Below are positions 1 to 55,071 of a DNA stretch of 58,326 bases, piece by piece. The position numbers and the translations under genes were made by a program. Every line of letters starts with the position of its first letter. Position 1 is the first letter of the stretch. The notes below the pieces were generated by a model that saw nothing but the letters and a program-made list of their open reading frames with translations, did no database searches and was not told the DNA's origin. The stretch comes from an uncultured Candidatus Saccharibacteria bacterium (GTDB taxonomy: Bacteria; Patescibacteriota; Minisyncoccia; Phycocordibacterales; UBA5272): the NCBI GenBank assembly GCA_964348515.1, contig CAYGDA010000003.1, positions 10,401-68,726 of the forward strand, in the 5' to 3' direction.

Positions 1-55
1 CCACGCCCCCGGCAAAGATGAGAAGAACTATTATAGCTGTAAGTATTTTGTTCAT
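1..55 (-). CDS. 5' end of a CDS running off the left edge; hydrophobic N-terminus MNKILTAIIVLLIFAGGV
   Basis: ATG at 55-53 on the minus strand stays open to the window edge. Only 18 codons are visible. Confidence 0.25.
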   Translation of the reverse strand, partial: MNKILTAIIVLLIFAGGV

Positions 56-79
56 CCTGTTGTATGACGTGGTTCTTAT

Positions 80-1015
80 TTATTTGTTACAGAGCACTTT
101 CAACGCAGCCAGGTCGGCGGCTGTCGGCTTCTCCCCGGTGCCCTGATTTAACGGGTACATAATCGCGGAAGGTGACTCCACATGGTCAAGCCCGATTGCG
201 TGGCCAAATTCGTGCTCAAGCACGCGGATTAATTTATTCATATCATTGTACTGGTAGATATCGATTTCTTTCCCCTCACTGCTCACAACATACTCTCCCT
301 CCCTGAATTCAGGTTCAACGGAGGCGTTAATTGTGTTGTATTTATTTGCAACGGCATTATGACTTGCCACGCTGCCGTTTAATTCCGCCACGACTGAATT
401 TATATTCCTGATTTCCGCGTTAAGGGCCGCCGCTTCCGCCTCCAGCTTCGCGTATTCCAGAATCAATTCCTCCTTGGCGTTCTGAAGGCGTTGGTACACA
501 TCCTTAGGAGCTCCCCCGCGCTTGTTCCAGGAATCAACTTCTTCGTTATAACTTTGCTGTACCGCCTCAACCCGGCTCTTGTGAGCCTCAAACTTGGCTT
601 TATTTTCTTTGTACACGGCGGTCAAAGAATTAAATTTACTTTTCAATGCCTGATAATTGGCATCACTGCTGTCCAGAACCGTGTCCAATGTTTTTAACTG
701 TTCCGTCACCTGCTGGCGCCTGTCATATTTAAAGTTAACAACCACTTCCCCTTTCGTGGCGTTATATTCCAAAAGGTTTTTGCCCGATGCTTTGTCCCAC
801 GACTCCGCGGCTTTATTGATGATAGAGAGCACGGCATCATGGGAAAGCTTAAATCGGGGATCAATTTTACCGAGGGTATAGATAACGGGTTTTGAACAGG
901 GAGCACCATAAATAATGGTGCGGACCCTGTCACGTATTTGATCCTGATAGGTATAGGCAAAAACCCCGGCGATAATCACGAGGACAAGGAGAATAAAATC
1001 AATAATTTTTCGCAT
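80..1015 (-). CDS. membrane-anchored coiled-coil protein with a C-terminal matrixin-type (M10) zinc metalloprotease domain
   Basis: 311-aa ORF with an N-terminal TM helix. HEFGHAIGLDH matches HExxHxxGxxH, and AIMYP looks like a Met-turn. Confidence 0.8.
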   Translation of the reverse strand: MRKIIDFILLVLVIIAGVFAYTYQDQIRDRVRTIIYGAPCSKPVIYTLGKIDPRFKLSHDAVLSIINKAAESWDKASGKNLLEYNATKGEVVVNFKYDRRQQVTEQLKTLDTVLDSSDANYQALKSKFNSLTAVYKENKAKFEAHKSRVEAVQQSYNEEVDSWNKRGGAPKDVYQRLQNAKEELILEYAKLEAEAAALNAEIRNINSVVAELNGSVASHNAVANKYNTINASVEPEFREGEYVVSSEGKEIDIYQYNDMNKLIRVLEHEFGHAIGLDHVESPSAIMYPLNQGTGEKPTAADLAALKVLCNK

Positions 1016-1021
1016 GATTTT

Positions 1022-1702
1022 TTATAACTGTGAATATTCCTCTTCCGCCCGGAGCAAATTTTTTTCTTTCTGGGCTTGCCTCAGCGCCCTGGCCGACTCT
1101 GTTTTCCAATTATGATTCCTTAACAACTCCAGCGCAAACTTGTAAAACTTTTTTCTGACTTCCGGATCCTCCAGATTCAAACCCAGCTCTTCCGCAACTT
1201 TTGCGCGTTTTTCAAAAAAATCTTCTCTGCCAAAATTGCTCACGTCTCCGTCTAAGGCATAGCCGATTTCACTTTGTTGTTTAAGCAAAAACGGCGACCC
1301 GTTTTTTACGATAACCTGGGTGTCCATTATATTTGCCATTACTTCCTCGCGTTTATCTTCCGACAACAGTTTATAAGCCTCGCTTTTCCTGAACAGTGTT
1401 ACCGCGATGGGCTCGTTCTCCGTATCCTGTTCAATAAAGCCCACATCGTGCCACGCCGCCGAAACCGCCTGCTGTTCAACAACTTCCGGGGACGCCCCGT
1501 CAGAGAGCGCAAACAGTATGGTTTCCATTATCACGTCTTCCGTGTGTGCTTTTCCGTGATACCGCAAGTGCCTGGGGAGTTTTTCCAACAGAACGAGCGC
1601 CTCGGAAATTTCAGGCCTTTTTATAAGCTCATTATAAACAGCCAGAGCTTCATTTTTTAACTCTTGGCTCTCTGTCCTCGGATATTGCTCGGCTCTTTCC
1701 AT
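1022..1702 (-). CDS. HD-domain phosphohydrolase-like protein
   Basis: 226-aa ORF. HGKAHTEDV followed by AAWHDVGF fits the H...HD metal-binding pattern. Confidence 0.6.
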   Translation of the reverse strand: MERAEQYPRTESQELKNEALAVYNELIKRPEISEALVLLEKLPRHLRYHGKAHTEDVIMETILFALSDGASPEVVEQQAVSAAWHDVGFIEQDTENEPIAVTLFRKSEAYKLLSEDKREEVMANIMDTQVIVKNGSPFLLKQQSEIGYALDGDVSNFGREDFFEKRAKVAEELGLNLEDPEVRKKFYKFALELLRNHNWKTESARALRQAQKEKNLLRAEEEYSQL

Positions 1703-1729
1703 AATTAGAAGATAGCAGATATGCGAAAA

Positions 1730-2482
1730 TTATACATTCGTGAGGCCTTCACTCTCCGACACCGGAACTTCCATAATCAAAATACTGGCTTCCGAATCAG
1801 TTGAGATTTCGACTCTTTCCGTATCCCAGACTCCGACAGCATCCCGCTTTGAAAGATTTTGTCCGCCGACAATCGCGCTTCCTTCAATAACAAAAATATA
1901 CACCCCCGCCTGTTCCGGCGGAGCATCCCCCCTTTGAATTAACTTGTATTCAATCGGCGACTTGCTGTCCAGAACGGCGTGGTAAATGTAAGCATCCTGA
2001 TTTACGGTTAACCCCCCGCCCTTTCCTTCCGGAGAAACCAAAAGCGTAATGCCGTTCTCTTTACTCTGAAACCCGAATGATTTCTGAAAGTATCTAGGTT
2101 TTATCCCGCGCTCTTTCGGCTCAATCCATATTTGAAAAAGCGCGAGAGGCACGTCCTTTGACCCGTTATATTCAGAATGCGTAACTCCCGTTCCGGCTGA
2201 CATTACCTGGACATCGCCTGCCGGCACAACTTTCGTATTCCCAATATCATCTTTGTGGGTAACGGCTCCCTCTCTCACGATAGTTATAATTTCCATGTCC
2301 TTATGGCTGTGCGCGCCAAAACCGGAATCAGGCGCAATTATATCGTCATTTATGACCCGCAATTTTCCAAATCCCATGCGCGCCGGGTCATACCAGTCTG
2401 CAAAACTAAAACTGTAGCGGGTTTTAAGCCAGCCGTAATCTCCATTTCCGCGTTCTTCCGATTTATGAATTATTTTTTTCAT
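1730..2482 (-). CDS. pirin family protein (bicupin)
   Basis: 250-aa ORF. GFGAHSHKDMEIITIV and THSEYN are cupin His motifs, and the N-terminus is YhhW-like. Confidence 0.85.
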   Translation of the reverse strand: MKKIIHKSEERGNGDYGWLKTRYSFSFADWYDPARMGFGKLRVINDDIIAPDSGFGAHSHKDMEIITIVREGAVTHKDDIGNTKVVPAGDVQVMSAGTGVTHSEYNGSKDVPLALFQIWIEPKERGIKPRYFQKSFGFQSKENGITLLVSPEGKGGGLTVNQDAYIYHAVLDSKSPIEYKLIQRGDAPPEQAGVYIFVIEGSAIVGGQNLSKRDAVGVWDTERVEISTDSEASILIMEVPVSESEGLTNV

Positions 2483-2495
2483 TTAATGCGCACAA

Positions 2496-3095
2496 TCACA
2501 ATAGCTCCCTAGGCAACCTCCAAATATAGATTCCCAGAACAAAAGAAATAACCGCCATAGCAACAAATACAGCCTGATAGCCGAAGTTCTGAATAATGAT
2601 ACCCCCTGTAAGTGCCGCAATACCGGTCATAATTGAAGAAATCCCTTCCCACTCTCCCCACTCAACTATTGAATCTTCTTTTGCGGTGTGACTGGCATAT
2701 ACAGAATCAAAAGCAGGGGTCCCTATGGCTGCCGCCACGCCCCAAAAAATCTGCGTAACAATAAGTTGCGGGATACTTGTCATTACCGCGTAACTTAAAA
2801 ACACGCCCGCTCTTAAAATGTATCCGAGTGCGATTAGGAGTTCCTGTTCTCTCACTTTAAGCGACCAATTGGAAAAAAGAAGTATCAAAACCCCGGCGAC
2901 TATGGAAAAAATTGCCCACGACAATCCGGCAAAGGCGATATTCCCGCCGATATTCTGTACAAAAACCGCGTAAAACGGGGCAAAAAGTCCCACTATAAAA
3001 ACCAATATGGAGTTAGTGGTTATAAGAATGCGGAGACTGCGATTCAGGCGTGCACTAGGTAAGGCAACGGCTATTATTCTTTTTAAATTTTCCAT
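2496..3095 (-). CDS. polytopic membrane protein, MFS-half-like
   Basis: 199-aa ORF with about six hydrophobic helices. Confidence 0.5.
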   Translation of the reverse strand: MENLKRIIAVALPSARLNRSLRILITTNSILVFIVGLFAPFYAVFVQNIGGNIAFAGLSWAIFSIVAGVLILLFSNWSLKVREQELLIALGYILRAGVFLSYAVMTSIPQLIVTQIFWGVAAAIGTPAFDSVYASHTAKEDSIVEWGEWEGISSIMTGIAALTGGIIIQNFGYQAVFVAMAVISFVLGIYIWRLPRELL

Positions 3096-3192
3096 TTGTT
3101 TAATTATAGACCAAAAATTTTCTTAACAGAACATATAATTAATAAGCTTGTAAAACTGTTATATAAAGCTATATTGGGTAATAAATTGACTC

Positions 3193-3735
3193 ATGAAATA
3201 TTTTATTGGAATAACCCCGCCAAAGGAAACTGCCCAAAAAATCGCCTCTTTTCAAAAAGAGTTCAAAAACAACAAACTCCCCGGGATGTTTGAACCCCAC
3301 ATAACCATAAAAACCAAAAACGGCCTGACCGAAGATCTAAGTTGGATAGAAAAAGTGCGCCCGGTCATTGAAAGCTACCATAAATTTGAAGTGAGTTTCA
3401 CCGGCGTTGACACGTTCAGGGATGAAGTTGTAATACTGAGGATTGAGCCCTCAAAGGAACTGGTCGGACTTCACAAAGAATTATTCAGAACAATATCCCC
3501 CGACGAAACTGACACATCCAGAAAGTATTTCGAAAACGACAGGTTTGAACCGCATCTTACCCTGGGAATGTCTTCCTGGGGAATGAACAAAGAAGAGTTG
3601 GTTGTTATGAAAGAGGCCGCAGAAAAAGAATTTCCTGCCATTCCAAAATTTGAAGTTCCTTTCGTAAGAATCTACCGCCAAAAAGAACTTGATGAACTTT
3701 ATGAAGAATTTCTTGATATCCCGCTAAATGAATAA
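3193..3735 (+). CDS. 2H phosphoesterase (LigT/ThpR-type RNA 2',3'-cyclic phosphodiesterase family)
   Basis: Two HxTx motifs, EPHITIKT and EPHLTLGM, at the spacing expected for the 2H fold. Confidence 0.8.
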   Translation: MKYFIGITPPKETAQKIASFQKEFKNNKLPGMFEPHITIKTKNGLTEDLSWIEKVRPVIESYHKFEVSFTGVDTFRDEVVILRIEPSKELVGLHKELFRTISPDETDTSRKYFENDRFEPHLTLGMSSWGMNKEELVVMKEAAEKEFPAIPKFEVPFVRIYRQKELDELYEEFLDIPLNE

Positions 3736-34503: not shown

Positions 34504-36966
34504 TTACAAACAGGTAAGTGATGCCAAAGTATCCCCATCGCGAAGTTTCATTATGCGCACCCCTTGGGTCTGGCGTCCTAGGGACGGAATAGTTTTCTGT
34601 TCTGTCCTTATTACTTGGCTTTTCTTGGAAATGGCGATTATTTCTTCTGTGTTTTCGGTGACAACCTTGCCCATGACAAGTTTTCCAGTTTTTGCCGTCA
34701 CTTTAGCCGTCTTTATTCCGGACCCTCCTCGTTTTTGTATTTTATATTCCTTGAGCGGAGTCTTTTTACCGAAACCATTCGCGGAAATAACAAGAAGTTC
34801 GGGGTTTTGCACGGACTGACCGACAATATCGGCATTTATAAGATAGTCGCCTTTCTTCATTTTTATTCCACGCACACCGCCGGCGGCGCGCCCCATTTCC
34901 CGCACATCCGATTCCTTAAAGCGTATTGCCTGGCCTCCGGACGTCGCCAATATAAACGTATCACCCTTCTCCACAAACATTGAGGCCAGAAGTTCGTCCC
35001 CCTTATCCAGACGGATAGCAATAATTCCGCTTCTGCGCACGTCCTTAAAGTTTTCCGCCGAGACTTTTTTGATAACCCCCTGTTTTGTAACCATAGCCAG
35101 GGATAATTTTGCCTGTTTAATTTCTTTTGGCATAACCAAAATGGAAGTTACTTTTTCATCGGAACCAACCTGCAGGAAATTAACGATTGATTTTCCGCGC
35201 GTGGAGCGGCGCCCTTCCGGAACGTCATACATTTTTATCTGATAGGCTTTGCCGCTGTCCGTGAAGAAAAGAAGGTCGCTGTGCGTTGACGCAGTAAGAA
35301 TGGTTGTTACAAAATCCTCTTCTTTGGTGTTCAAATCAACCACACCTACACCACCACGGCGCTGTACACGGAACTCTGACGGATCGGTGCGCTTAACATA
35401 ACCGCCGGAAGTATAAACGAGCACAGATTCCGTGTCGGGAATCAAATCTTCAACCGTCATGACAGAAACAGCACCTTTGACTATTCTGGTGCGCCGTTCA
35501 TCCCCATATTTTTCTCTGGCTTCCAAAAGTTCCTTCCTGACAAGGGCCAAAATTTTCTTCGGGTGCTTAAGCAGGTCTTTAAGACTTTCAATCATCGCCT
35601 GTACCTCGCGAAGTTCATCTTCAATCTTCTTTCTTTCAAGTCCGGCCAGACGCTGGAGTTTCATTTCCAAAATTGCGGTCGCCTGAATGGAAGAAAACTT
35701 GAATTTCTGCATCAGGTTGGCGTGGGCGGCTGCGGTATCTTTGGAGGCTTTTATGAGTTTTATAATCTCATCAATGTGGTCCAGAGCTTTTTTAAGCCCG
35801 AGCAATATATGTTCGCGTTCCTCGGCGCGCCTCAAATCATATTCCGTGCGGCGGCGCACAACTTCCCGGCGGTAACCAACAAACTCGGTCAGTATATTTT
35901 TCAGAGAAAGCGTCTGCGGTACGCCATCTACAAGAGCCACCAGGTTGTAGTGGAAAGTGCTCTCAAGTTCCGTATGTTTATACAAAGTATTCAAAATGGT
36001 CTGCGGGTGTCCCCCTCCCTTAAGCTGGACGACTATACGGATATCTTTGGCGGACTCGTCACGCAAATCTTTTATATCTATTTTTTTATCGCGGTGAAGA
36101 TCAGCTATCTGCACCAAAAGATCGGATTTGTTAACGCGATAAGGTATGGAAGTTATAATTATCTGGTAATGACCGTCTTTCACTTCCATTATTTCTGCCT
36201 CGCCACGCACAACGACGCCGCCGCGTCCTGTTGCGTAAGCGTGGGCAATATCAGACTTGTTGAAAGCAACCCCGCCTGTCGGGAAATCCGGCCCCTTAAC
36301 AAATTCCAAAAGGTCTTCAGTGGTCGCTTCTTCGTTATCAATCAGGTGCACGGTCGCGTCCACAACTTCGCCTAAATTATGGGGCGGGATATTTGTGGCC
36401 ATACCCACGGCAATACCGAGAGTCCCATTCAAAAGAACATTAGGCAGTGAACTCGGAAGAACAGACGGTTCCTTCTTGGTACCGTCGTAATTCGGACGAA
36501 AATCAACCGTATCTTTTTCTATGTCGCTCAACAGCTCACTTGCTATGCGCGACATTTTTGCCTCGGTATAGCGGTAAGCAGCCGCGCTGTCCCCGTCAAT
36601 CGAACCAAAGTTACCTTGCCCAAGAATAAGCGGGTATCGGAAAGAGAAATCCTGCGCCATTTTCACCATGGCATCATAGACTGAAGCATCTCCGTGCGGA
36701 TGGTAAGAACCGAGCACATCTCCGACTACGGTCGCAGATTTTCTGAACTTGGCGGAAGCAGTGAGTCCTTTTTCATGCATTGAGAAAAGTATGCGGCGAT
36801 GTACCGGCTTCAGTCCGTCACGTACGTCCGGAAGTGCGCGCTGGGTAATGACGGACATGGCATAGTCCAAATAGGACTCGCGCATTTCCTTAACTATATT
36901 TACCGGCAAAACCCCGCCTACAGCGGGGCTTTCTGCCTCCTTTTTCTCCTCTTCTTTACGAGCCAT
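34504..36966 (-). CDS. gyrA: DNA gyrase subunit A
   Basis: [11 protein letters not shown], the active-site AAYRYTE region, and C-terminal beta-pinwheel repeats. Confidence 0.95.
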
Positions 36967-37344: not shown

Positions 37345-37596
37345 TTACTTCAGATGGCTTGAGACGAGTTTAGTCATCTCAAACATTGTAACTTCGCCCT
37401 TGCCCCCAAAAACAGCCTTCAATTTATCATCTGCGAGAATATTCCTCTTGTTCTTGGGATTCTGAAGATTATTCTTTTTGATGTATACCCAAAGCTTTTT
37501 AACCACCTCAGTCCTAGGCAGTGGACCTTTTCCGATAACCGCTTCAAGTTCTGAAGAAAGATTGAGCGGTTTTGATAAAGCTGAATTTATTGCCAT
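37345..37596 (-). CDS. SWIB/MDM2-domain protein (stand-alone, 83 aa)
   Basis: LPRTEVVKKLWVYIKKNNLQNPKNKRNILADDKLKAVFG matches the SWIB core pattern. Confidence 0.8.
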   Translation of the reverse strand: MAINSALSKPLNLSSELEAVIGKGPLPRTEVVKKLWVYIKKNNLQNPKNKRNILADDKLKAVFGGKGEVTMFEMTKLVSSHLK

Positions 37597-37682
37597 AAAA
37601 TGAATATAATTTATATTAATACTGACTTAACCAACCCAGTATACAGCACGGGCGGAAACTTTGTACTCTGTCGCCTTTAGCA

Positions 37683-38303
37683 CTACAGCTCTTCAAGCAA
37701 CATCACTTCCCCGTCTTTACCGTCTATATCCTTGCGTTTTACTGTTAGCTTTTCAATTGGAGCCACTTTTTCGGCTCCGGCTTCGCGCAAAAAAAGCGGT
37801 AACGTTTTCTCGCTGTAGTTCATCGGTATTATTACTTTCGGCTCAAGCGCCACGGAAATCGATGCCGCTTCTCTGAAGGAATAACCTTCTCCTCCTTCCA
37901 CCGGGACAAACAAAATGTCCACTTCGCCTATCTCTTCTTTTTGCTCGGCATCAAGTTTGCCGGAAAGCATCCCCAACAAACATATTTTTATTCCATCCAA
38001 GGTAAGCGTGTAAATGGTATTAACATATTTTTGTTTGTCTATCAGGCACTCAGAGAAAATTCCACGCACAATGACTCCCTTAACTTCATATTCTCCGGGA
38101 CCCCTGATTTCGAACGGTTTTTTATCCCCATGGGCGACCTGTTCGAAACCGTTACATTCAATGGTGTTTACGGAGGAAAGAGCCACGTCCGCGCCAAAAC
38201 GGGTGAGCCTGCCTTTTGAGTCTTTAGAAACAGGATTATAGGCAACTACGGTATCCCCGAGCTGAAGCTTAAAAAATTCCTTGCCGTGGTAAGTAATAAT
38301 CAT
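37683..38303 (-). CDS. MBL-fold metal-dependent hydrolase (UPF0173-like)
   Basis: MIITYHGKEFFKLQ start and a beta-lactamase-fold pattern. Confidence 0.6.
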   Translation of the reverse strand: MIITYHGKEFFKLQLGDTVVAYNPVSKDSKGRLTRFGADVALSSVNTIECNGFEQVAHGDKKPFEIRGPGEYEVKGVIVRGIFSECLIDKQKYVNTIYTLTLDGIKICLLGMLSGKLDAEQKEEIGEVDILFVPVEGGEGYSFREAASISVALEPKVIIPMNYSEKTLPLFLREAGAEKVAPIEKLTVKRKDIDGKDGEVMLLEEL

Positions 38304-38373
38304 GGGTGGCAGTATACAAAAAAACACAGCCGGTTGGTAGTCCCCCTTATAAAAACAGAGTTTCTTGGCAGTA

Positions 38374-38403
38374 TTGACAAGTAGCCTATTTATGTGGTAT
38401 AAT
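38374..38403 (+). promoter_or_regulatory. near-consensus sigma70-type promoter
   Basis: TTGACA (38374-38379), an 18-nt spacer, then TGgTATAAT (extended -10, TATAAT at 38398-38403). Confidence 0.7.
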
Positions 38404-38489
38404 TAGGGGCAGATGGAAGGGGGTACAAAAAAACTCAATTCCTCTAAAAAAGTAGGTCCATTGAAAAACCAATCTTTAGGAGAATAGCC

Positions 38490-38996
38490 ATGTTTAAGAA
38501 CATCAAACGCATTACCCTCTCGGGTTTTTTCTTTTTGATGGCGTGCGCCATCGGCGGCGGGGCCCAAGCACAGGTACCGGGAACTCCACACTACGCGCAG
38601 GCCGGTTTTGATTTCGGCAGCGGCATCAACGCCTGGACAGAGGTCGCCGGTCCCAACGGGAACGGCAACCTGCAGTTCAACAGCAACCAAGCGCCCATCA
38701 TTTCCTCTTACGCGTCAACTTCGCTCGGATCTGTTTCGTTCACGGCAACGCCGTGGGCAAACGGAAACGTCTCAAGCGAGAAAGGCGGCTCGGGGAACGT
38801 GAGCATGCAGATTACGGGGTTCGGCAATATCGGCCTCGGGAAGAACGATGGAAACCTGCAAAGCTTTTCCAACTTCCAAAAGTCGATGAATTTGTCGGCC
38901 TCGTCGAACGGAAACGGCTCGGCGAACATTTCCGGAGGCTTCACCGTCTACGGGAACATGGGCACATTCAACAACCAACCGAGAACGAAACAGTAA
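38490..38996 (+). CDS. secreted N/G/S-rich repeat protein (168 aa), no family recognised
   Basis: AGGAGA RBS and a signal peptide ending GGAQAQ. Imperfect repeats NGNGNLQFNSNQ, GSGNVSMQITGFGN, DGNLQSFSNFQ and NGNGSANISGG. Confidence 0.7.
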   Translation: MFKNIKRITLSGFFFLMACAIGGGAQAQVPGTPHYAQAGFDFGSGINAWTEVAGPNGNGNLQFNSNQAPIISSYASTSLGSVSFTATPWANGNVSSEKGGSGNVSMQITGFGNIGLGKNDGNLQSFSNFQKSMNLSASSNGNGSANISGGFTVYGNMGTFNNQPRTKQ

Positions 38997-39045
38997 CGAA
39001 CCGCGGCGCCGACCGGTGCCGTGAAAAAAACAAGGAGACCCGATC

Positions 39046-39942
39046 ATGCGAGGCATTGCCGTACTGCTTGTAATTGTTTCAAACGTGGTGTGTATGAGCA
39101 ACGTCATCGCACAGAGCTCCTCCACATTCAACAACGACATGGCAATTCAAACTGGAAATTCCCAGGCAATAAACGGCACGGGAAATACCCAGAGCATCAA
39201 CTTCTCGGGGGGCAATTCACCGCTCCCCTACGCCCCGCCGGTTGCTCTTCAACAAGCATCGGCGCCGGCACTTTTCCAGATGCTCCCCAACCAAGCCGGC
39301 CTTCCGGCGGAAGTAGTGGGGTGGCAACTCGACATGGCTTACGTGAACTCCTGCAAGCCGCGCGTCGGAAAAGGAAAACTGGCCGTAGTAAAACAGGAAG
39401 GAGATTCGGGAATGACGACTTTTGTTTTCTCTGGGCATCAAAACCTGAAGAAGCAAGGGGGCGCCATCCCCGAAATCGAGGTAGACCTCTCGGGCAAAGG
39501 TACTTTTGAGTGCCTCGGGAAAGTCACTATCTCGGCCACTCCAAAAGCGGCCAAAGAGTTCCCCCTGGACATGAGCGTGATAGTGAGCGATCTCATGAAC
39601 TCCCTCGGAGAAGTACTCTCCGGTGTTGAAGGGCAAGTCGTCCTTCTCTCCCACCCAAGTTTTTGGGCGGGAGGAGTCGGGGTGTCGTCCGGAGCCAACG
39701 GGTTCTCTCTTGGTACCGGAATCTTCAACGCGGTAAGCGCCTTAACGGGTCTAACCGTTGCCCCCGGAATCACCAACACAAACGGTTCCTCATTTCCCAA
39801 TGCAAAAATCGGGATGAGTTTCATCGTCGCAAAACGAATGAAACAGGGGGACCCTGGGGCGGTAGATATCAACATCAACCCCGCGCCCATGCAAAATGTA
39901 CAACCGCTCGGCGGCAACGGAATCAAATCTGAAGCCAAGTAA
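39046..39942 (+). CDS. secreted protein (298 aa) with an N-terminal Q/N/G repeat, a P/A linker and a Gly-rich C-terminal region; no family recognised
   Basis: AAGGAGA RBS and a signal peptide ending VIAQS. Contains AIQTGNSQAINGTGNTQSINFSGGN. Confidence 0.7.
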   Translation: MRGIAVLLVIVSNVVCMSNVIAQSSSTFNNDMAIQTGNSQAINGTGNTQSINFSGGNSPLPYAPPVALQQASAPALFQMLPNQAGLPAEVVGWQLDMAYVNSCKPRVGKGKLAVVKQEGDSGMTTFVFSGHQNLKKQGGAIPEIEVDLSGKGTFECLGKVTISATPKAAKEFPLDMSVIVSDLMNSLGEVLSGVEGQVVLLSHPSFWAGGVGVSSGANGFSLGTGIFNAVSALTGLTVAPGITNTNGSSFPNAKIGMSFIVAKRMKQGDPGAVDININPAPMQNVQPLGGNGIKSEAK

Positions 39943-39962
39943 TGCCAAGCACCTTTAAACCC

Positions 39963-39994
39963 CCGCCCTGAGCTACAAGCCAGGGCGGTTTTTT
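39963..39994 (+). terminator. intrinsic terminator
   Basis: CCGCCCTG-agctacaagc-CAGGGCGG followed by TTTTTT. Confidence 0.8.
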
Positions 39995-40081
39995 ATTTCT
40001 TATAAAAAAATTATCCCGGTCAGTTACAAACAAAAATCATTGCTACTCGTCAAATAAAAATTTATACTTACAACAAATCCG

Positions 40082-41167
40082 ATGAAGAAATCCGCTATTT
40101 TATTTTTTACATTATTTCTCTATTTGCCGGCGCTTGTAACCGCGCAGGCTGTCTTGGGCGGCACTCCGGAACCGGCCGCCGGTTCTCAAGTTTCTTCCAC
40201 CTCTTCAAACACCTCAAATTCTTCCTGTACGATAATAACCCGCGATCTCAGGTACACGGCCGTAAGCAGCCGGACCGGCGGTGAAGTAACGGTTCTGCAA
40301 AATTTTTTAAAGGCGAAGGGATATCTTAACACCGAACCTACCGGCAGATTCGGACTTGCCACTCTTCAGGCCGTAAGGGACTTCCAACTGGCTAAAGGCC
40401 TGCCGACGACCGGAAACGTCGCGACTCTCACGGCGGCAAAAATAAATGAAATTAATTGCGCGGGGAGCGCCGGTGCCACAAGCGGAACAACTTCCGGAAC
40501 AGTATCGGGCACTCCCCAAAATACCGTGGTTACAAACCTGATTCAGGGATTCAGCGTTTTCCCTACAAGTATTGTCCAGGGACAATTGGCCACGCTAAGC
40601 TGGAGCTCCTCGGCAGACCACTGTGTTATTTCAAATAAAGTTGATTCCGGCAATTGGGTTCGCTCAAGGATTATAACTGAAGGGCAAGGTTCAGTAAGTG
40701 TAGCGCCGCAGGGCTCCGCCCAATACAAACTTTCCTGCTATGACAGACGCGACGAGGCCGGAGCCATAACTGAACGCGAAGTCTCCGTGGGTTCCGACGC
40801 TCCGCCAACAGCCACGATAAGGTCATTCACCGCGAGCCCGGCGACAACCGACCCCGGACAACTTTCAAAATTCAAGTGGGACGCTGTTGCGGACCATTGC
40901 GTAATATCAAACAAAGATTCCATGGGTAACTGGGCAAGAATAACTTCCATGTACGGACAAGCCGGTGAATATGTCACGGCTCCCATGAGTACATCAAAAT
41001 ACCGCCTGTCCTGCTTTAGCGATTTAAATGAAAATACCCCCCGAACCGACAGAGAGCTGACCGTTACGGTAAACGGAACCCCTGATCTTTCAGCTTCCAA
41101 TTCAACTACCGCCATATCCGGCTCGTGTCCAACCGGGACAACGCTTCACGGAACTTCCTGCTGGTAA
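40082..41167 (+). CDS. secreted protein with a PG_binding_1-like domain and two tandem ~95-aa repeat domains
   Basis: Signal peptide, LQNFLKAKGYL...GRFGLATLQAVRDFQ, and duplicated ADHCVISNK...Y[KR]LSC[YF] modules. Confidence 0.7.
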   Translation: MKKSAILFFTLFLYLPALVTAQAVLGGTPEPAAGSQVSSTSSNTSNSSCTIITRDLRYTAVSSRTGGEVTVLQNFLKAKGYLNTEPTGRFGLATLQAVRDFQLAKGLPTTGNVATLTAAKINEINCAGSAGATSGTTSGTVSGTPQNTVVTNLIQGFSVFPTSIVQGQLATLSWSSSADHCVISNKVDSGNWVRSRIITEGQGSVSVAPQGSAQYKLSCYDRRDEAGAITEREVSVGSDAPPTATIRSFTASPATTDPGQLSKFKWDAVADHCVISNKDSMGNWARITSMYGQAGEYVTAPMSTSKYRLSCFSDLNENTPRTDRELTVTVNGTPDLSASNSTTAISGSCPTGTTLHGTSCW

Positions 41168-41196
41168 ACCGGTATACGGCGCCCAAACCGCAAGCA

Positions 41197-41225
41197 TTGC
41201 AAAAAACCGCGGTGCGTGTTACATT
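41197..41225 (+). promoter_or_regulatory. candidate promoter for rpsA
   Basis: TTGCAA, a 17-nt spacer, then TACATT. Confidence 0.3.
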
Positions 41226-41379
41226 CACGCAATCGTTTGAGAACCTGTTTGAAAAATCAATACGATTATTAAAGTCTCTTTAGGACTAAACCCGCGTCTC
41301 TCTGTGAGTAAATGAGCCGGACACCTAAGGGAAGTGCGATTTTCGCCTCCTTTTGGAGGCAATTTTTGTTTTAAAATTT

Positions 41380-42435
41380 ATGACTACTGTAACAGAACCA
41401 AAAATCGACGGGCCGAAAATGCTGCGTGTCGAAGAAATAGTGGAAGGACCGGTTATCGCAATAGAGCCATCGTCGGTTTACGTTGATCTTCCTCCATACG
41501 GAACCGGAATTATATACGGGATAGAATTCATCCAGGCTAAAGACGTTATCCGGAAAATTAATATAGGCGACATAATAAAAGCCAAAATAATTCTCCGTGA
41601 AAATGACGACGGTTATATAGAACTGTCTCTCCGCGAAGCCAAGCAAGCCCTCATTTGGAGCGATGCCGAAGCGGCCATACAAAACAAAACCGTCATCGAT
41701 CTCGTTGTAAAAGAAGCCAACAAGGGCGGTCTTATAATGGAGTGGCAGGGGCTGAGCGGATTTTTACCCGCGTCCCAGCTTAAATCTGAAAATTACCCGC
41801 GCGTTGCCGACGGCGACAAGGACAAAATCCTGCGCGAACTTAAAAAACTTATCGGAAAGCGAATATCAGTTTGCATAATCGGAGCAACCCCGAAAGAAGG
41901 AAAACTCATCTTCTCGGAAAAAGATACTTCCCTTAAGGAAAAAACCGAGATTGTTTCCCGCTATACTCTTGGGGACGAAATAGAAGGCCCGATTACCGGA
42001 ATCGTTGATTTCGGAGTATTCGTAAAAATAGAAGAGGGATTGGAGGGATTGGTGCACATCTCCGAAATCAGCTGGGCTCTCATTGACGATCCGCGCTCGC
42101 TTTTCAAGGTGGGAGACGTCGTCAAAGCCAAAATCATTGAGATTAAAGACGGAAAAATTTCTCTTTCCATCAAAGCCCTGACACCAAATCCGTGGAGCGA
42201 TGCCGATAAAAAATACAACAAGGGCGACACAGTTAAGGGTGTTGTAATCAAGTTCAACAAGCACGGGGCTCTTGTCTCCATAGAAGAAGGAGTTGCCGGC
42301 CTTGTTCATGTTTCCGAGTTCGGTTCAGAAGCCAAACTAAAGGAAAACATAAGTCTCGGAAAAACTTACGATTTTCAAATCACATTCTTTGAACCAAAGG
42401 AACAAAGAATGACCCTCTCGTACGTAAAAAAATAA
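41380..42435 (+). CDS. rpsA: 30S ribosomal protein S1 (four S1 domains)
   Basis: Repeated S1 OB-fold motifs (GxVxxIxxFGxFV, GLVHISE). Confidence 0.9.
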   Translation: MTTVTEPKIDGPKMLRVEEIVEGPVIAIEPSSVYVDLPPYGTGIIYGIEFIQAKDVIRKINIGDIIKAKIILRENDDGYIELSLREAKQALIWSDAEAAIQNKTVIDLVVKEANKGGLIMEWQGLSGFLPASQLKSENYPRVADGDKDKILRELKKLIGKRISVCIIGATPKEGKLIFSEKDTSLKEKTEIVSRYTLGDEIEGPITGIVDFGVFVKIEEGLEGLVHISEISWALIDDPRSLFKVGDVVKAKIIEIKDGKISLSIKALTPNPWSDADKKYNKGDTVKGVVIKFNKHGALVSIEEGVAGLVHVSEFGSEAKLKENISLGKTYDFQITFFEPKEQRMTLSYVKK

Positions 42436-54190: not shown

Positions 54191-54535
54191 ATGTATCCGT
54201 ATCCGGAAAAAGACAAGCAGGGTGAACTCATATTTCTGACTGACACTGAAGGGTCCGGGAAACCCCAAAGGGAACCGCCGCGCGTAAACCGCGCGCTTAT
54301 ACCCCAAACTTCAGCCAGCGGACAGTGGCTCATAAAACACTCAAGTGGTTTTGTGAAAGACGAAATACAGGCGGCCATCATACTTTCTTTGGTGGCAGCC
54401 GCTTTACTTACCGTCTCCTTTTATCTGTTTTCGGCTGTTCTCGACGGGCCGATTAAGGCACCCAAAGGGTTCGGCGGAAACATACCCAATGATCCTGTTT
54501 ATCAGAATCCCCCGCGTCCCGAAGACTTACGATGA
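54191..54535 (+). CDS. hypothetical single-pass membrane protein
   Basis: 114-aa ORF. Its stop overlaps the next ATG (ATGA). Confidence 0.4.
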   Translation: MYPYPEKDKQGELIFLTDTEGSGKPQREPPRVNRALIPQTSASGQWLIKHSSGFVKDEIQAAIILSLVAAALLTVSFYLFSAVLDGPIKAPKGFGGNIPNDPVYQNPPRPEDLR

Positions 54536-55071
54536 AAATGCGACCCTCAAATAAAAAATTGAATCAGCGGGGATTCACTCTGATAGAACTCCTCGTAGTC
54601 ATTTCCATAATAAGCGTACTCTCGGCCGTAGTTTTAACAACACTCACAAGCGCGCGCAACAAAGCCAGATACGCCAGAGCAAACGCGGAAATAAACGGAT
54701 TCATCAGAATGGCGATAATGGCCCAGGGGGAAGGCAGTAAGACTTTACTCCAAATAACCGGTAGTGGCTGCAGTGACTGCGCCTGCCGGAGCATCGGGGA
54801 CATAAAAAATATTTCATCGTCTCACGCATGCTACACCCAATGGGCAAGCGCCCTTACCAATATAAATACCGCCTCCAACGGAAATTACGCGGGACTCTTG
54901 GGAATGACCCGGGATCCATGGGGCAGTCCGTATCTCCTGGACGAAAACGAGCGTGAGAGCGGGCCTTCCGACTGCCGCAACGATACCATCCGCTCCGCCG
55001 GACCAAACGGCATTGCCTACGACGCCGATGATGTCGGTTATATAATTCCCTTAAGAAGCACCTGCCCGTAA
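54532..55071 (+). CDS. type IV pilin / pseudopilin-like protein
   Basis: Class III signal QRG-FTLIELLVVISIISVL. The C-terminal domain has four or more Cys. Confidence 0.85.
   Translation: MKMRPSNKKLNQRGFTLIELLVVISIISVLSAVVLTTLTSARNKARYARANAEINGFIRMAIMAQGEGSKTLLQITGSGCSDCACRSIGDIKNISSSHACYTQWASALTNINTASNGNYAGLLGMTRDPWGSPYLLDENERESGPSDCRNDTIRSAGPNGIAYDADDVGYIIPLRSTCP

Follow-up and report, generated by a model that had tools for sequence, protein, structure and literature searches.

A compact cassette of two genes, whose products we name P1 and P2, lies between the genes for an MBL-fold hydrolase and a peptidoglycan-binding (PG-binding) protein in the 58,326-nt stretch of DNA analysed here (contig CAYGDA010000003.1, positions 10,401 to 68,726; "the window"). 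The segment at 38374–39998 is a single promoter-to-terminator transcription unit for two Sec-exported proteins, and the original prediction of a self-contained unit encoding two secreted proteins of no recognised family is supported. We interpret the cassette as an exported surface-structure operon built from new, previously undescribed protein families. In the reading that we prefer, to which we give a probability of roughly 0.4, P1 would be the abundant subunit of a surface polymer and P2 its minor partner, acting as an oligomeric anchor, an assembly factor or a pore. The GyrA encoded at 34504–36966 (minus strand) is 67–75% identical to GyrA of Candidatus Paceibacteria, Paceibacterota and Parcubacteria metagenome-assembled genomes (MAGs), and thus the window is a chromosomal segment of a bacterium of the Patescibacteria (candidate phyla radiation, CPR); its housekeeping genes include topA, dprA, relA/spoT, parB, clpB, infB, serS and dus. 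The features discussed below are collected in Table 1.

Table 1. Features of the cassette and its surroundings in the window, flanks of the cassettes found elsewhere (L numbers denote loci), and small proteins sharing a C-terminal tail. ORF, open reading frame; RBS, ribosome-binding site; aa, amino acids; AF2, AlphaFold2; pLDDT, predicted local distance difference test.
Locus	Feature	Position	Strand	Remarks
Window	10-mer CTTATAAAAA, copy 1	38346..38355	+	divergent MBL/P1 promoter region
Window	sigma-70-type promoter TTGACA-18 nt-TATAAT	38374..38403	+	TG extension at 38395–38396; 12/12 match
Window	AGGAG RBS of P1	38478..38482	+	
Window	P1 ORF, 168 aa	38490..38996	+	signal peptide ~aa 1–27, mature 141 aa
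Window	intercistronic GC-rich stem-loop, 9 bp, no U-tract	39002..39023	+	directly 3′ of P1 stop codon
Window	AGGAG RBS of P2	39033..39037	+	
Window	P2 ORF, 298 aa	39046..39942	+	signal peptide aa 1–22
Window	P2 predicted Gly/Ser/Thr-rich amphipathic beta-hairpin, aa 213–249	39682..39792	+	AF2, pLDDT ~60
Window	intrinsic terminator	39963..39998	+	26-nt stem-loop 39963–39988, then U-run
Window	10-mer CTTATAAAAA, copy 2	39999..40008	+	in U/A tract after terminator
Window	PG_binding_1 protein gene	40082..41167	+	outside conserved pair; within variable MBL-S1 segment
L001	cassette flanks			exonuclease / RRM protein
L002, L004	cassette flanks			HhH-GPD glycosylases
L005	cassette flank			RNase T
L006	cassette flanks			efp / recA
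L087	cassette flank: TsaD (tsaD)			
L087	cassette flank: tRNA-Val(GAC)	3317–3390		~90 nt downstream of cassette
L088	cassette flank: IS200-type Y1 transposase gene	2138–2809		~700 bp downstream of cassette
L089	cassette flank: tRNA-Thr(GGT)	545–618		cassette lies between the two tRNA genes
L089	cassette flank: tRNA-Thr(CGT)	2502–2577		
L091	cassette flank: 3′ end of gspE/pilB ATPase gene	2–451		
L091	cassette	552–1882		
L091	cassette flank: gspF/pilC + pilin-like genes	2087–3244		
L001	tail-bearing small protein	7878		
L002	tail-bearing small protein	360		
L004	tail-bearing small protein	~197		
L005	tail-bearing small protein	1561		
L087	tail-bearing small protein	2077		
L088	tail-bearing small protein	518		
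L091	tail-bearing small protein	998		

The anatomy of the unit agrees with what had been predicted. The promoter, claimed as the best of the window, is in fact its only 12/12 match on both strands. The two same-strand ORFs, each with its AGGAG site, are present as described, and all peptide motifs quoted for the two proteins were located in the translations. By inspection, the N-termini of P1 (…GGGAQA/Q) and P2 (…NVIA/Q) show the n-, h- and c-regions and the AXA-type cleavage sites expected of Sec export and processing by signal peptidase I (SPase I), and these features are kept in the homologues, as the predicted signal peptides would have it. The intercistronic stem-loop folds with −18.2 kcal/mol (z = −2.9), and the terminator, expected to be strong, with −22.5 kcal/mol (z = −4.8). 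The structure of the 5′ untranslated region is ordinary (z = 0.06), and no Rfam element was found in 37500–41500. The unit also stands out by its composition. Across both coding sequences (38490–39942) GC content is 0.548, the highest of all windows of this length in the 58 kb, against 0.459 ± 0.021 elsewhere (maximum 0.500; z = 4.2). The claim of a segment richer in GC than its flanks is therefore borne out, and a recount of the G+C letters gave the same values as the earlier hand counts, namely 36/60 for 38581–38640, 17/60 for 37981–38040 and 20/60 for 40081–40140.

The two genes were found together in other genomes too. A small same-strand ORF lies directly upstream of the P2 homologue in 10 of 10 other contexts with enough upstream DNA (L001, L002, L004, L005, L006, L087, L088, L089, L091 and one contig without DNA), and its product carries a signal peptide followed by a mature part of ~110–165 residues rich in G, S, N, A and T. 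The regulatory layout recurs as well. Near-consensus promoters with an extended −10 element precede the small gene in the window, L005 (11/12 plus TG), L001 (10/12 plus TG), L087 and L091, and a GC-rich intercistronic stem-loop is present in seven of ten loci (the window, L001, L005, L006, L087, L088 and L089). These stem-loops comprise 9–19 bp, with folding energies of −18 to −31 kcal/mol and z scores of −2.5 to −5; their sequences are unrelated, they stand right after the first stop codon, lack a U-tract and are followed by an A-rich AGGAG site. In fimbrial and other operons, such stem-loops attenuate read-through or protect the upstream segment of the messenger.

P2 has three close relatives, at 99%, 54% and 48% identity. 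A profile search of 1.84 billion representative proteins returned 62 clusters at E ≤ 1e-3, 11 of them at E ≤ 1e-30, which points to a family that is real yet very rare. A pattern derived from the P2 alignment matched nothing in 185,579 species-representative genomes or in viral contigs and added a single locus, L004, from metagenomes. No Pfam domain was found in 46 family members (E ≤ 0.01), P2 itself matched nothing in Pfam (E ≤ 1), NCBIfam, PHROGs or PADLOC, and searches of the PDB sequences with the P1 and P2 profiles gave noise only (E ≥ 0.05). The AF2 model of P2, built on the 46-sequence alignment, has a predicted template modelling (TM) score of 0.64. It shows a disordered N/Q/S/G-rich region with a Pro-rich linker (aa 23–85), the length of which varies from ~30 to ~270 residues in relatives, and an alpha/beta core (aa 88–210 and 250–285) with pLDDT above 90 and the conserved cysteines C103 and C156. 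From this core projects a hairpin with strands at 213–227 and 235–249 (pLDDT ~60). Across the 46 sequences F, L, I, V or Y alternate in it with G, S or T, and positions 219–227 and 233–245 are essentially free of charge; it has the amphipathic, Gly/Ser/Thr-rich character and the bilayer-spanning length of a stem hairpin, at a model confidence of only ~60. Foldseek searches of the PDB and BFVD with this model returned nothing at E below 0.1. The best PDB match (E = 0.16, TM score ~0.12) is not significant, and the top matches of this kind, the pore forms of alpha-hemolysin, leukocidins, Epx1 and gasdermin, evidently stem from the modelled hairpin alone. Weak Foldseek matches to esterases, together with the conserved S121, had prompted the idea of a catalytic triad, which was rejected because H131, D182 and S202 are not conserved at ≥90%.

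At its C-terminus P2 has a GGNG-K-x-EA tail, and relatives share GGNGKK.EA near the C-terminus (about 39900–39939 in the window); some of them carry Pro/Lys-rich C-terminal extensions. A tail of the form …P..(G)GK(G/K)-COOH was also seen in seven of the upstream small proteins, even where these are otherwise unalignable. The tail could be a shared signal for anchoring, cross-linking or recognition; we know of no sorting motif that fits.

P1 is the less tractable protein of the two. Its mature part of 141 residues consists of 16% G, 14% S and 14% N, with 6% charged residues. The AF2 model is all-beta, with nine strands, and has a pLDDT of 41, thus no fold can be assigned. No match to P1 was found in Pfam (E ≤ 1), NCBIfam, PHROG, PADLOC or the PDB, and seven further upstream small proteins had none in Pfam at E ≤ 0.1. 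A word-indexed homology search with P1 returned the self-match only, and a profile of P1-like proteins recovered its own members only; the relatives of P1 were therefore gathered from the DNA upstream of P2 homologues. Demonstrable homologues are those of L005 (phmmer 1.3e-24) and L087 (3.6e-7), both upstream of P2 homologues. When P1 and P2 were compared by hhalign only the signal peptides aligned, which indicates that the two proteins are mutually unrelated. As for the description of both as N/G/S/Q-rich with imperfect short repeats, the motifs are present as described; the repeats of P1 are weak.

Given these properties, a surface-fibre, adhesin or functional-amyloid role, as originally suggested, is a reasonable inference from sequence, and the preferred reading can be put as follows. 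The near-consensus extended −10 promoter and a bias towards C-ending codons would drive high expression. By analogy with fimbrial operons, the U-less stem-loop after P1 would attenuate read-through or protect the P1 part of the messenger, leaving P1 in excess over P2. P1, a nearly uncharged, Gly/Ser/Asn-rich beta protein of 14 kDa, would make up the bulk of a polymer on the surface or outside the cell, be it a fibre, a matrix or a coat. P2 would be the minor partner, whose disulfide-braced alpha/beta domain might oligomerise so that a ring or barrel at or within the envelope, or else a membrane anchor, arises from the glycine-rich amphipathic hairpins. Its variable N/Q/S-rich N-terminal region and Lys-containing C-terminal tail may tether, nucleate or pass P1.

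Several observations weigh against this reading. The P1 model is unusable (pLDDT 41), and the off-diagonal self-alignment of P1 reaches z = 3.0 and stays at or below a non-significant ~2.1 in six homologous or analogous proteins. With a P1-subgroup profile, jackhmmer and hmmsearch --max recover no upstream small proteins beyond those of the window, L005 and L087; outside these three loci, the conserved pair means the same position, size, export signal and composition. Polymerisation of P1 is conjectural, and no known fibre or amyloid family matches. High expression is deduced only from the promoter and the codon usage. The P2 hairpin is modelled with moderate confidence only (pLDDT ~60) and its tip is hydrophobic, not polar, so that an anchor or a protein–protein arm fits as well as a membrane-spanning barrel. 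Finally, CPR bacteria are not known to have an outer membrane, and thus an outer-membrane channel like CsgG cannot apply literally.

This last point bears on the curli of Enterobacteria, of which P1 and P2 could be taken as true relatives, P1 being a curlin like CsgA or CsgB and P2 a channel like CsgG. There are likenesses, since both systems combine a small Sec-exported, Gly/Ser/Asn/Gln-rich and beta-rich subunit with an exported partner predicted to give hairpins to an oligomer, and a surface structure is the likely role of both; Q/N/G/S-rich motifs such as GNSQAINGTGNTQSI are also superficially curlin-like. Yet no match to Curlin_rpt (PF07012), CsgG, CsgE or CsgF was found in Pfam for P1, P2, the seven small proteins or the 46 relatives of P2, nor were CsgG, CsgE or CsgF found with Pfam and NCBIfam in P2 or the neighbouring genes. 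P2 bears an SPase I-type site and no lipobox, its alpha/beta core is a different one, its model shows a single hairpin for each protomer instead of two, and CsgG structures do not appear among the Foldseek matches listed. The weak repeats of P1 (z = 3.0) stand against about five S-x5-Q-x-G-x-G-N-x-A-x3-Q units, with no clear five-fold repeat, and the curlin-like motif lies in the disordered N-terminus of P2, not in the small protein. Moreover, curli are made from two operons of seven genes and the cassette has two genes, in a CPR host. We therefore see next to no chance that the cassette is a curli-type functional amyloid. Membership of the curlin family is effectively refuted, with no Curlin_rpt match and no tandem repeats of that kind, and the resemblance to curlin or beta-solenoid repeats that had been pointed out was not supported, there being no match to any amyloid family at E ≤ 1, only weak repeats and a P1 model of pLDDT 41.

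Other surface systems resemble the cassette in logic rather than in sequence. Fimbrial and pilus operons such as pap and fim likewise open with a strong promoter and the gene of a small abundant subunit. An intercistronic hairpin then separates this gene from that of a less abundant assembly or anchoring component; a stem-loop after the major-subunit gene is known from both. Unlike them, the cassette has no chaperone, usher, sortase or prepilin signal, and its proteins are unrelated to pilin families. The matrix fibres of TasA/TapA in Bacillus and of the chaplins in Streptomyces come closest in function where a CPR host is concerned, as they too are built from Sec-exported fibre subunits with an anchoring or nucleating partner, in the absence of an outer membrane. 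They differ in that the cassette has no Pfam match to Peptidase_M73/TasA or to chaplins, no dedicated signal peptidase gene, and proteins of other size and composition.

The hairpin of P2 also allows a different function, in which the pair would be a two-component pore-forming or host-interaction factor. A soluble P2 protomer would insert its hairpin into a target membrane as part of an oligomeric beta-barrel, for example in the bacterium that carries the CPR cell, with P1 serving in binding or as an accessory component. The pore forms that head the non-significant Foldseek list accord with this, as do the uncharged hairpin, in which hydrophobic residues alternate with Gly, Ser or Thr across the family, the Sec export of both proteins, and the accessory, patchy occurrence of the module, often seen with toxin genes. 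The glycine-rich amphipathic hairpin, with ~15 residues per strand, is indeed like that of the alpha-hemolysin and leukocidin toxins. However, the likeness is confined to the hairpin (Foldseek E ≥ 0.16, TM score ~0.12), the alpha/beta core being unlike known beta-pore-forming toxins and unlike the beta-sandwich with a rim domain of the alpha-hemolysin/leukocidin family, and no Leukocidin, aerolysin or MACPF match was obtained in Pfam. The hairpin tip is hydrophobic, and the long, variable, low-complexity N-termini, like the C-terminal extensions rich in Pro and Lys, are more usual in structural proteins that span the envelope. In addition, the conserved stem-loop after P1 would imply an excess of the small protein. 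Membership of P2 in a beta-pore-forming toxin family was rejected, with no Pfam domain and a best Foldseek E of 0.16, and a pore-forming function of the pair seems to us unlikely. A literature search for pore-forming or amyloid factors of CPR bacteria found nothing specific.

The genomic position of the cassette is informative about its history. In most of 80 related Paceibacteria loci (L007–L086; the conserved MBL-S1 site, ±8 kb around gyrA) the gene order is S1 protein, divergent from MBL-fold hydrolase, gyrA, methyltransferase and solute-binding protein. The S1 and MBL genes are 200–400 bp apart in ~12 of the 80 (e.g. L020, L031, L057, L064, L074 and L085), and others hold 0.8–2.1 kb of unrelated small ORFs between them. 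In the window, 3.0 kb separate the MBL gene (37683–38327) from the S1 gene (41353–42435), and this gap holds P1, P2 and the PG_binding_1 gene. No relative of P1, P2 or the PG-binding protein was detected in the 80 loci by tblastn or by profile search of the ORFs; the cassette therefore counts as accessory, occupying a variable slot between conserved genes that otherwise adjoin. Across the window and the 80 loci, the divergent MBL/S1 junction appears as a hot spot of variable content. The same arrangement was found at 99.5–99.97% identity in four other assemblies (1–12 mismatches each over the aligned region), so that an assembly artefact can be dismissed and the locus is stable across the population; these assemblies differ too little from the window for a selection test.

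Elsewhere the flanks of the cassette are unrelated in every locus (Table 1). The placement beside tRNA genes in L087 and L089 is of a kind typical of integrated islands. In L091 the cassette, which has its own promoter (TTGACA-17-TGaTAAGAT), sits within a pilB-pilC cluster, which may mean that it is functionally linked to type IV pili or simply that this is one more insertion site. The Y1 transposase of L088 is 51% identical to one in the Paceibacteria locus L055. Organism names are known for four P2 clusters, and the members so named are hypothetical proteins of Paceibacterota MAGs and of one Gammaproteobacteria MAG. The distribution is therefore patchy, across Paceibacterota and Gammaproteobacteria MAGs and varied insertion sites, and it is the synteny together with this distribution, not the composition, that argues for transfer at some time.

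Composition calls for caution in general, since proteins rich in Gly, Ala and Pro, together with a preference for C-ending codons, can give rise to a GC-rich island in a low-GC genome, as can a foreign origin. The G+C content at third codon positions (GC3) is 0.73 in P1 and 0.61 in P2, against 0.48 ± 0.04 in 54 other ORFs of the window, and this excess means that amino-acid content alone does not explain the island. Cassette GC3 lies above that of the neighbours in all five measurable loci (the window, L001, L002, L005 and L006). P1 values of 0.48, 0.48, 0.62, 0.73 and 0.80 go with host values of ~0.34, 0.40, 0.45, 0.48 and 0.62, respectively, and thus track the host. The third-position shift in the window is chiefly one of C over T, with C/(C+T) at 0.78 in P1 and 0.71 in P2 against 0.50 ± 0.07. 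Accordingly, the codon shares in P1 and P2 are 0.90 and 0.77 for AAC (background 0.50), 0.56 and 0.71 for ATC (0.19), and 0.62 and 0.67 for TTC (0.38), with CAA/CAG and AAA/AAG unshifted in P2. Elsewhere in the window an equally extreme C/(C+T) is found only in a type IV pilin-like gene (54532–55071, with an N_methyl motif; 0.72), which suggests that the pilin and the cassette share a codon signature of highly expressed surface genes in this genome. Such a pattern is what a well-adapted gene with high expression would show, not a recent import from a GC-rich donor, and expression-linked codon bias in Gly/Ala/Ser/Pro-rich proteins accounts for the composition no less well than a foreign donor would. 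As for the horizontal acquisition initially proposed, the accessory status, with absence from 80 relatives, speaks for it, and the argument from composition is weak.

Taken further, the same data could mean that P1 and P2 are native envelope genes, forming an old, vertically inherited and highly expressed operon that was lost or relocated in most relatives, with a GC excess due to amino-acid composition and translational codon bias only. This alternative concerns the origin of the cassette, not its function. It would account for the constant positive offset with which cassette GC3 follows the host in five loci, for the C-over-T bias in common with the pilin gene, for a window locus free of mobility genes and inverted repeats, and for family members in other Paceibacterota MAGs. 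It does not sit well with the absence of the pair from the site in all 80 Paceibacteria, the different neighbourhood in every locus, the cassettes flanked by tRNA genes, by pilB and pilC or by an IS200-type transposase, or the occurrence in a Gammaproteobacteria MAG, and extreme rarity (62 clusters in 1.8 billion proteins) is likewise hard to square with it. We hold a purely vertical origin to be improbable.

How the unit might have moved was addressed in the original prediction by a 10-mer, CTTATAAAAA, taken to bracket it like a target-site duplication. The sequence does occur at both positions given (Table 1), the first copy lying 19 nt from the GTG of the MBL ORF and 43 nt from its likely ATG. 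There are three matches in the window (38346, 39999 and, as reverse complement, 1618), where 0.6 are expected. Shuffling gives a probability of 0.024 that two intergenic regions of such length and composition share some 10-mer; among real intergenic pairs of the window, 9 of 300 do. A transposon-like element leaving a 10-bp duplication would explain why the direct repeat brackets the cassette exactly from promoter to terminator and why the MBL-S1 junction appears empty in relatives. Against such an element, neither a transposase or integrase gene nor terminal inverted repeats were found at the window cassette, the bracketed segment holding only P1 and P2, and no comparable direct repeats flank the cassettes of L001, L005 and L006. 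The second copy belongs to the terminator tail, the PG-binding gene, which is missing from the relatives as well, falls outside the bracket, and the chance level of ~0.03 applies to a feature chosen post hoc. The claim of a target-site duplication is thus weakened. The repeat is real and mildly unexpected, probably a coincidence, and we regard a transposon of this kind as very improbable.

CPR bacteria, or Patescibacteria, make up a large share of bacterial diversity and are thought to live attached to other cells. Their genomes are rich in unknown proteins and, to our knowledge, almost nothing is known of their surfaces apart from type IV pili. Strongly promoted, exported and conserved, and with a P2 that lacks recognisable fold relatives, the cassette offers a concrete candidate for a novel structure at the cell surface or in contact with the host. 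It is distinguished by a conserved operon logic, by a confident new-fold model with a barrel-type hairpin, and by the way it seems to have moved, in one piece from promoter to terminator and with no mobility genes. A bolder view, which we find doubtful, would combine these features. The pair would then be a minimal two-gene surface-polymer system, in which a ring or pore of new-fold P2, with one hairpin per protomer, secretes, nucleates or anchors a hyper-abundant and fast-evolving P1, and CPR bacteria and Proteobacteria, possibly as epibionts and hosts, would exchange the promoter-to-terminator unit without the aid of a dedicated mobility gene. If P2 does form a ring of hairpins closing into a barrel, it would add a new architecture to the few self-assembling beta-barrel channels; if the pair is an abundant coat protein with its anchor, the outcome would be a modest annotation of new families. 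At ~1.6 kb and two genes, the cassette is small enough for a direct test by heterologous expression.

A few further observations were made around the cassettes. In L006 a perfect 13-nt inverted repeat, CAAAATATGATCA / TGATCATATTTTG, at 729–741 and 2808–2820 brackets the cassette, and none like it was found in the window, L001 or L005. A 42-nt direct repeat in L001 (6848–6889 and 7187–7228; 76% identity) closely precedes the cassette promoter; it is associated with two short uncalled minus-strand ORFs and may be a duplicated small gene or element. The protein encoded downstream in L089, ending in …TYQF, has the look of an outer-membrane beta-barrel, which no profile or PDB match confirmed. In the window, the PG_binding_1 protein is secreted and contains an S/T-rich linker as well as a ~90-aa unit that occurs twice (…ADHCVISNK..GNW.R…Y.LSC…); the GC3 of its gene is ordinary (0.51). 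Next to gyrA, at 37345–37596, a stand-alone SWIB/MDM2-domain protein of 83 aa is encoded (E = 1e-31).

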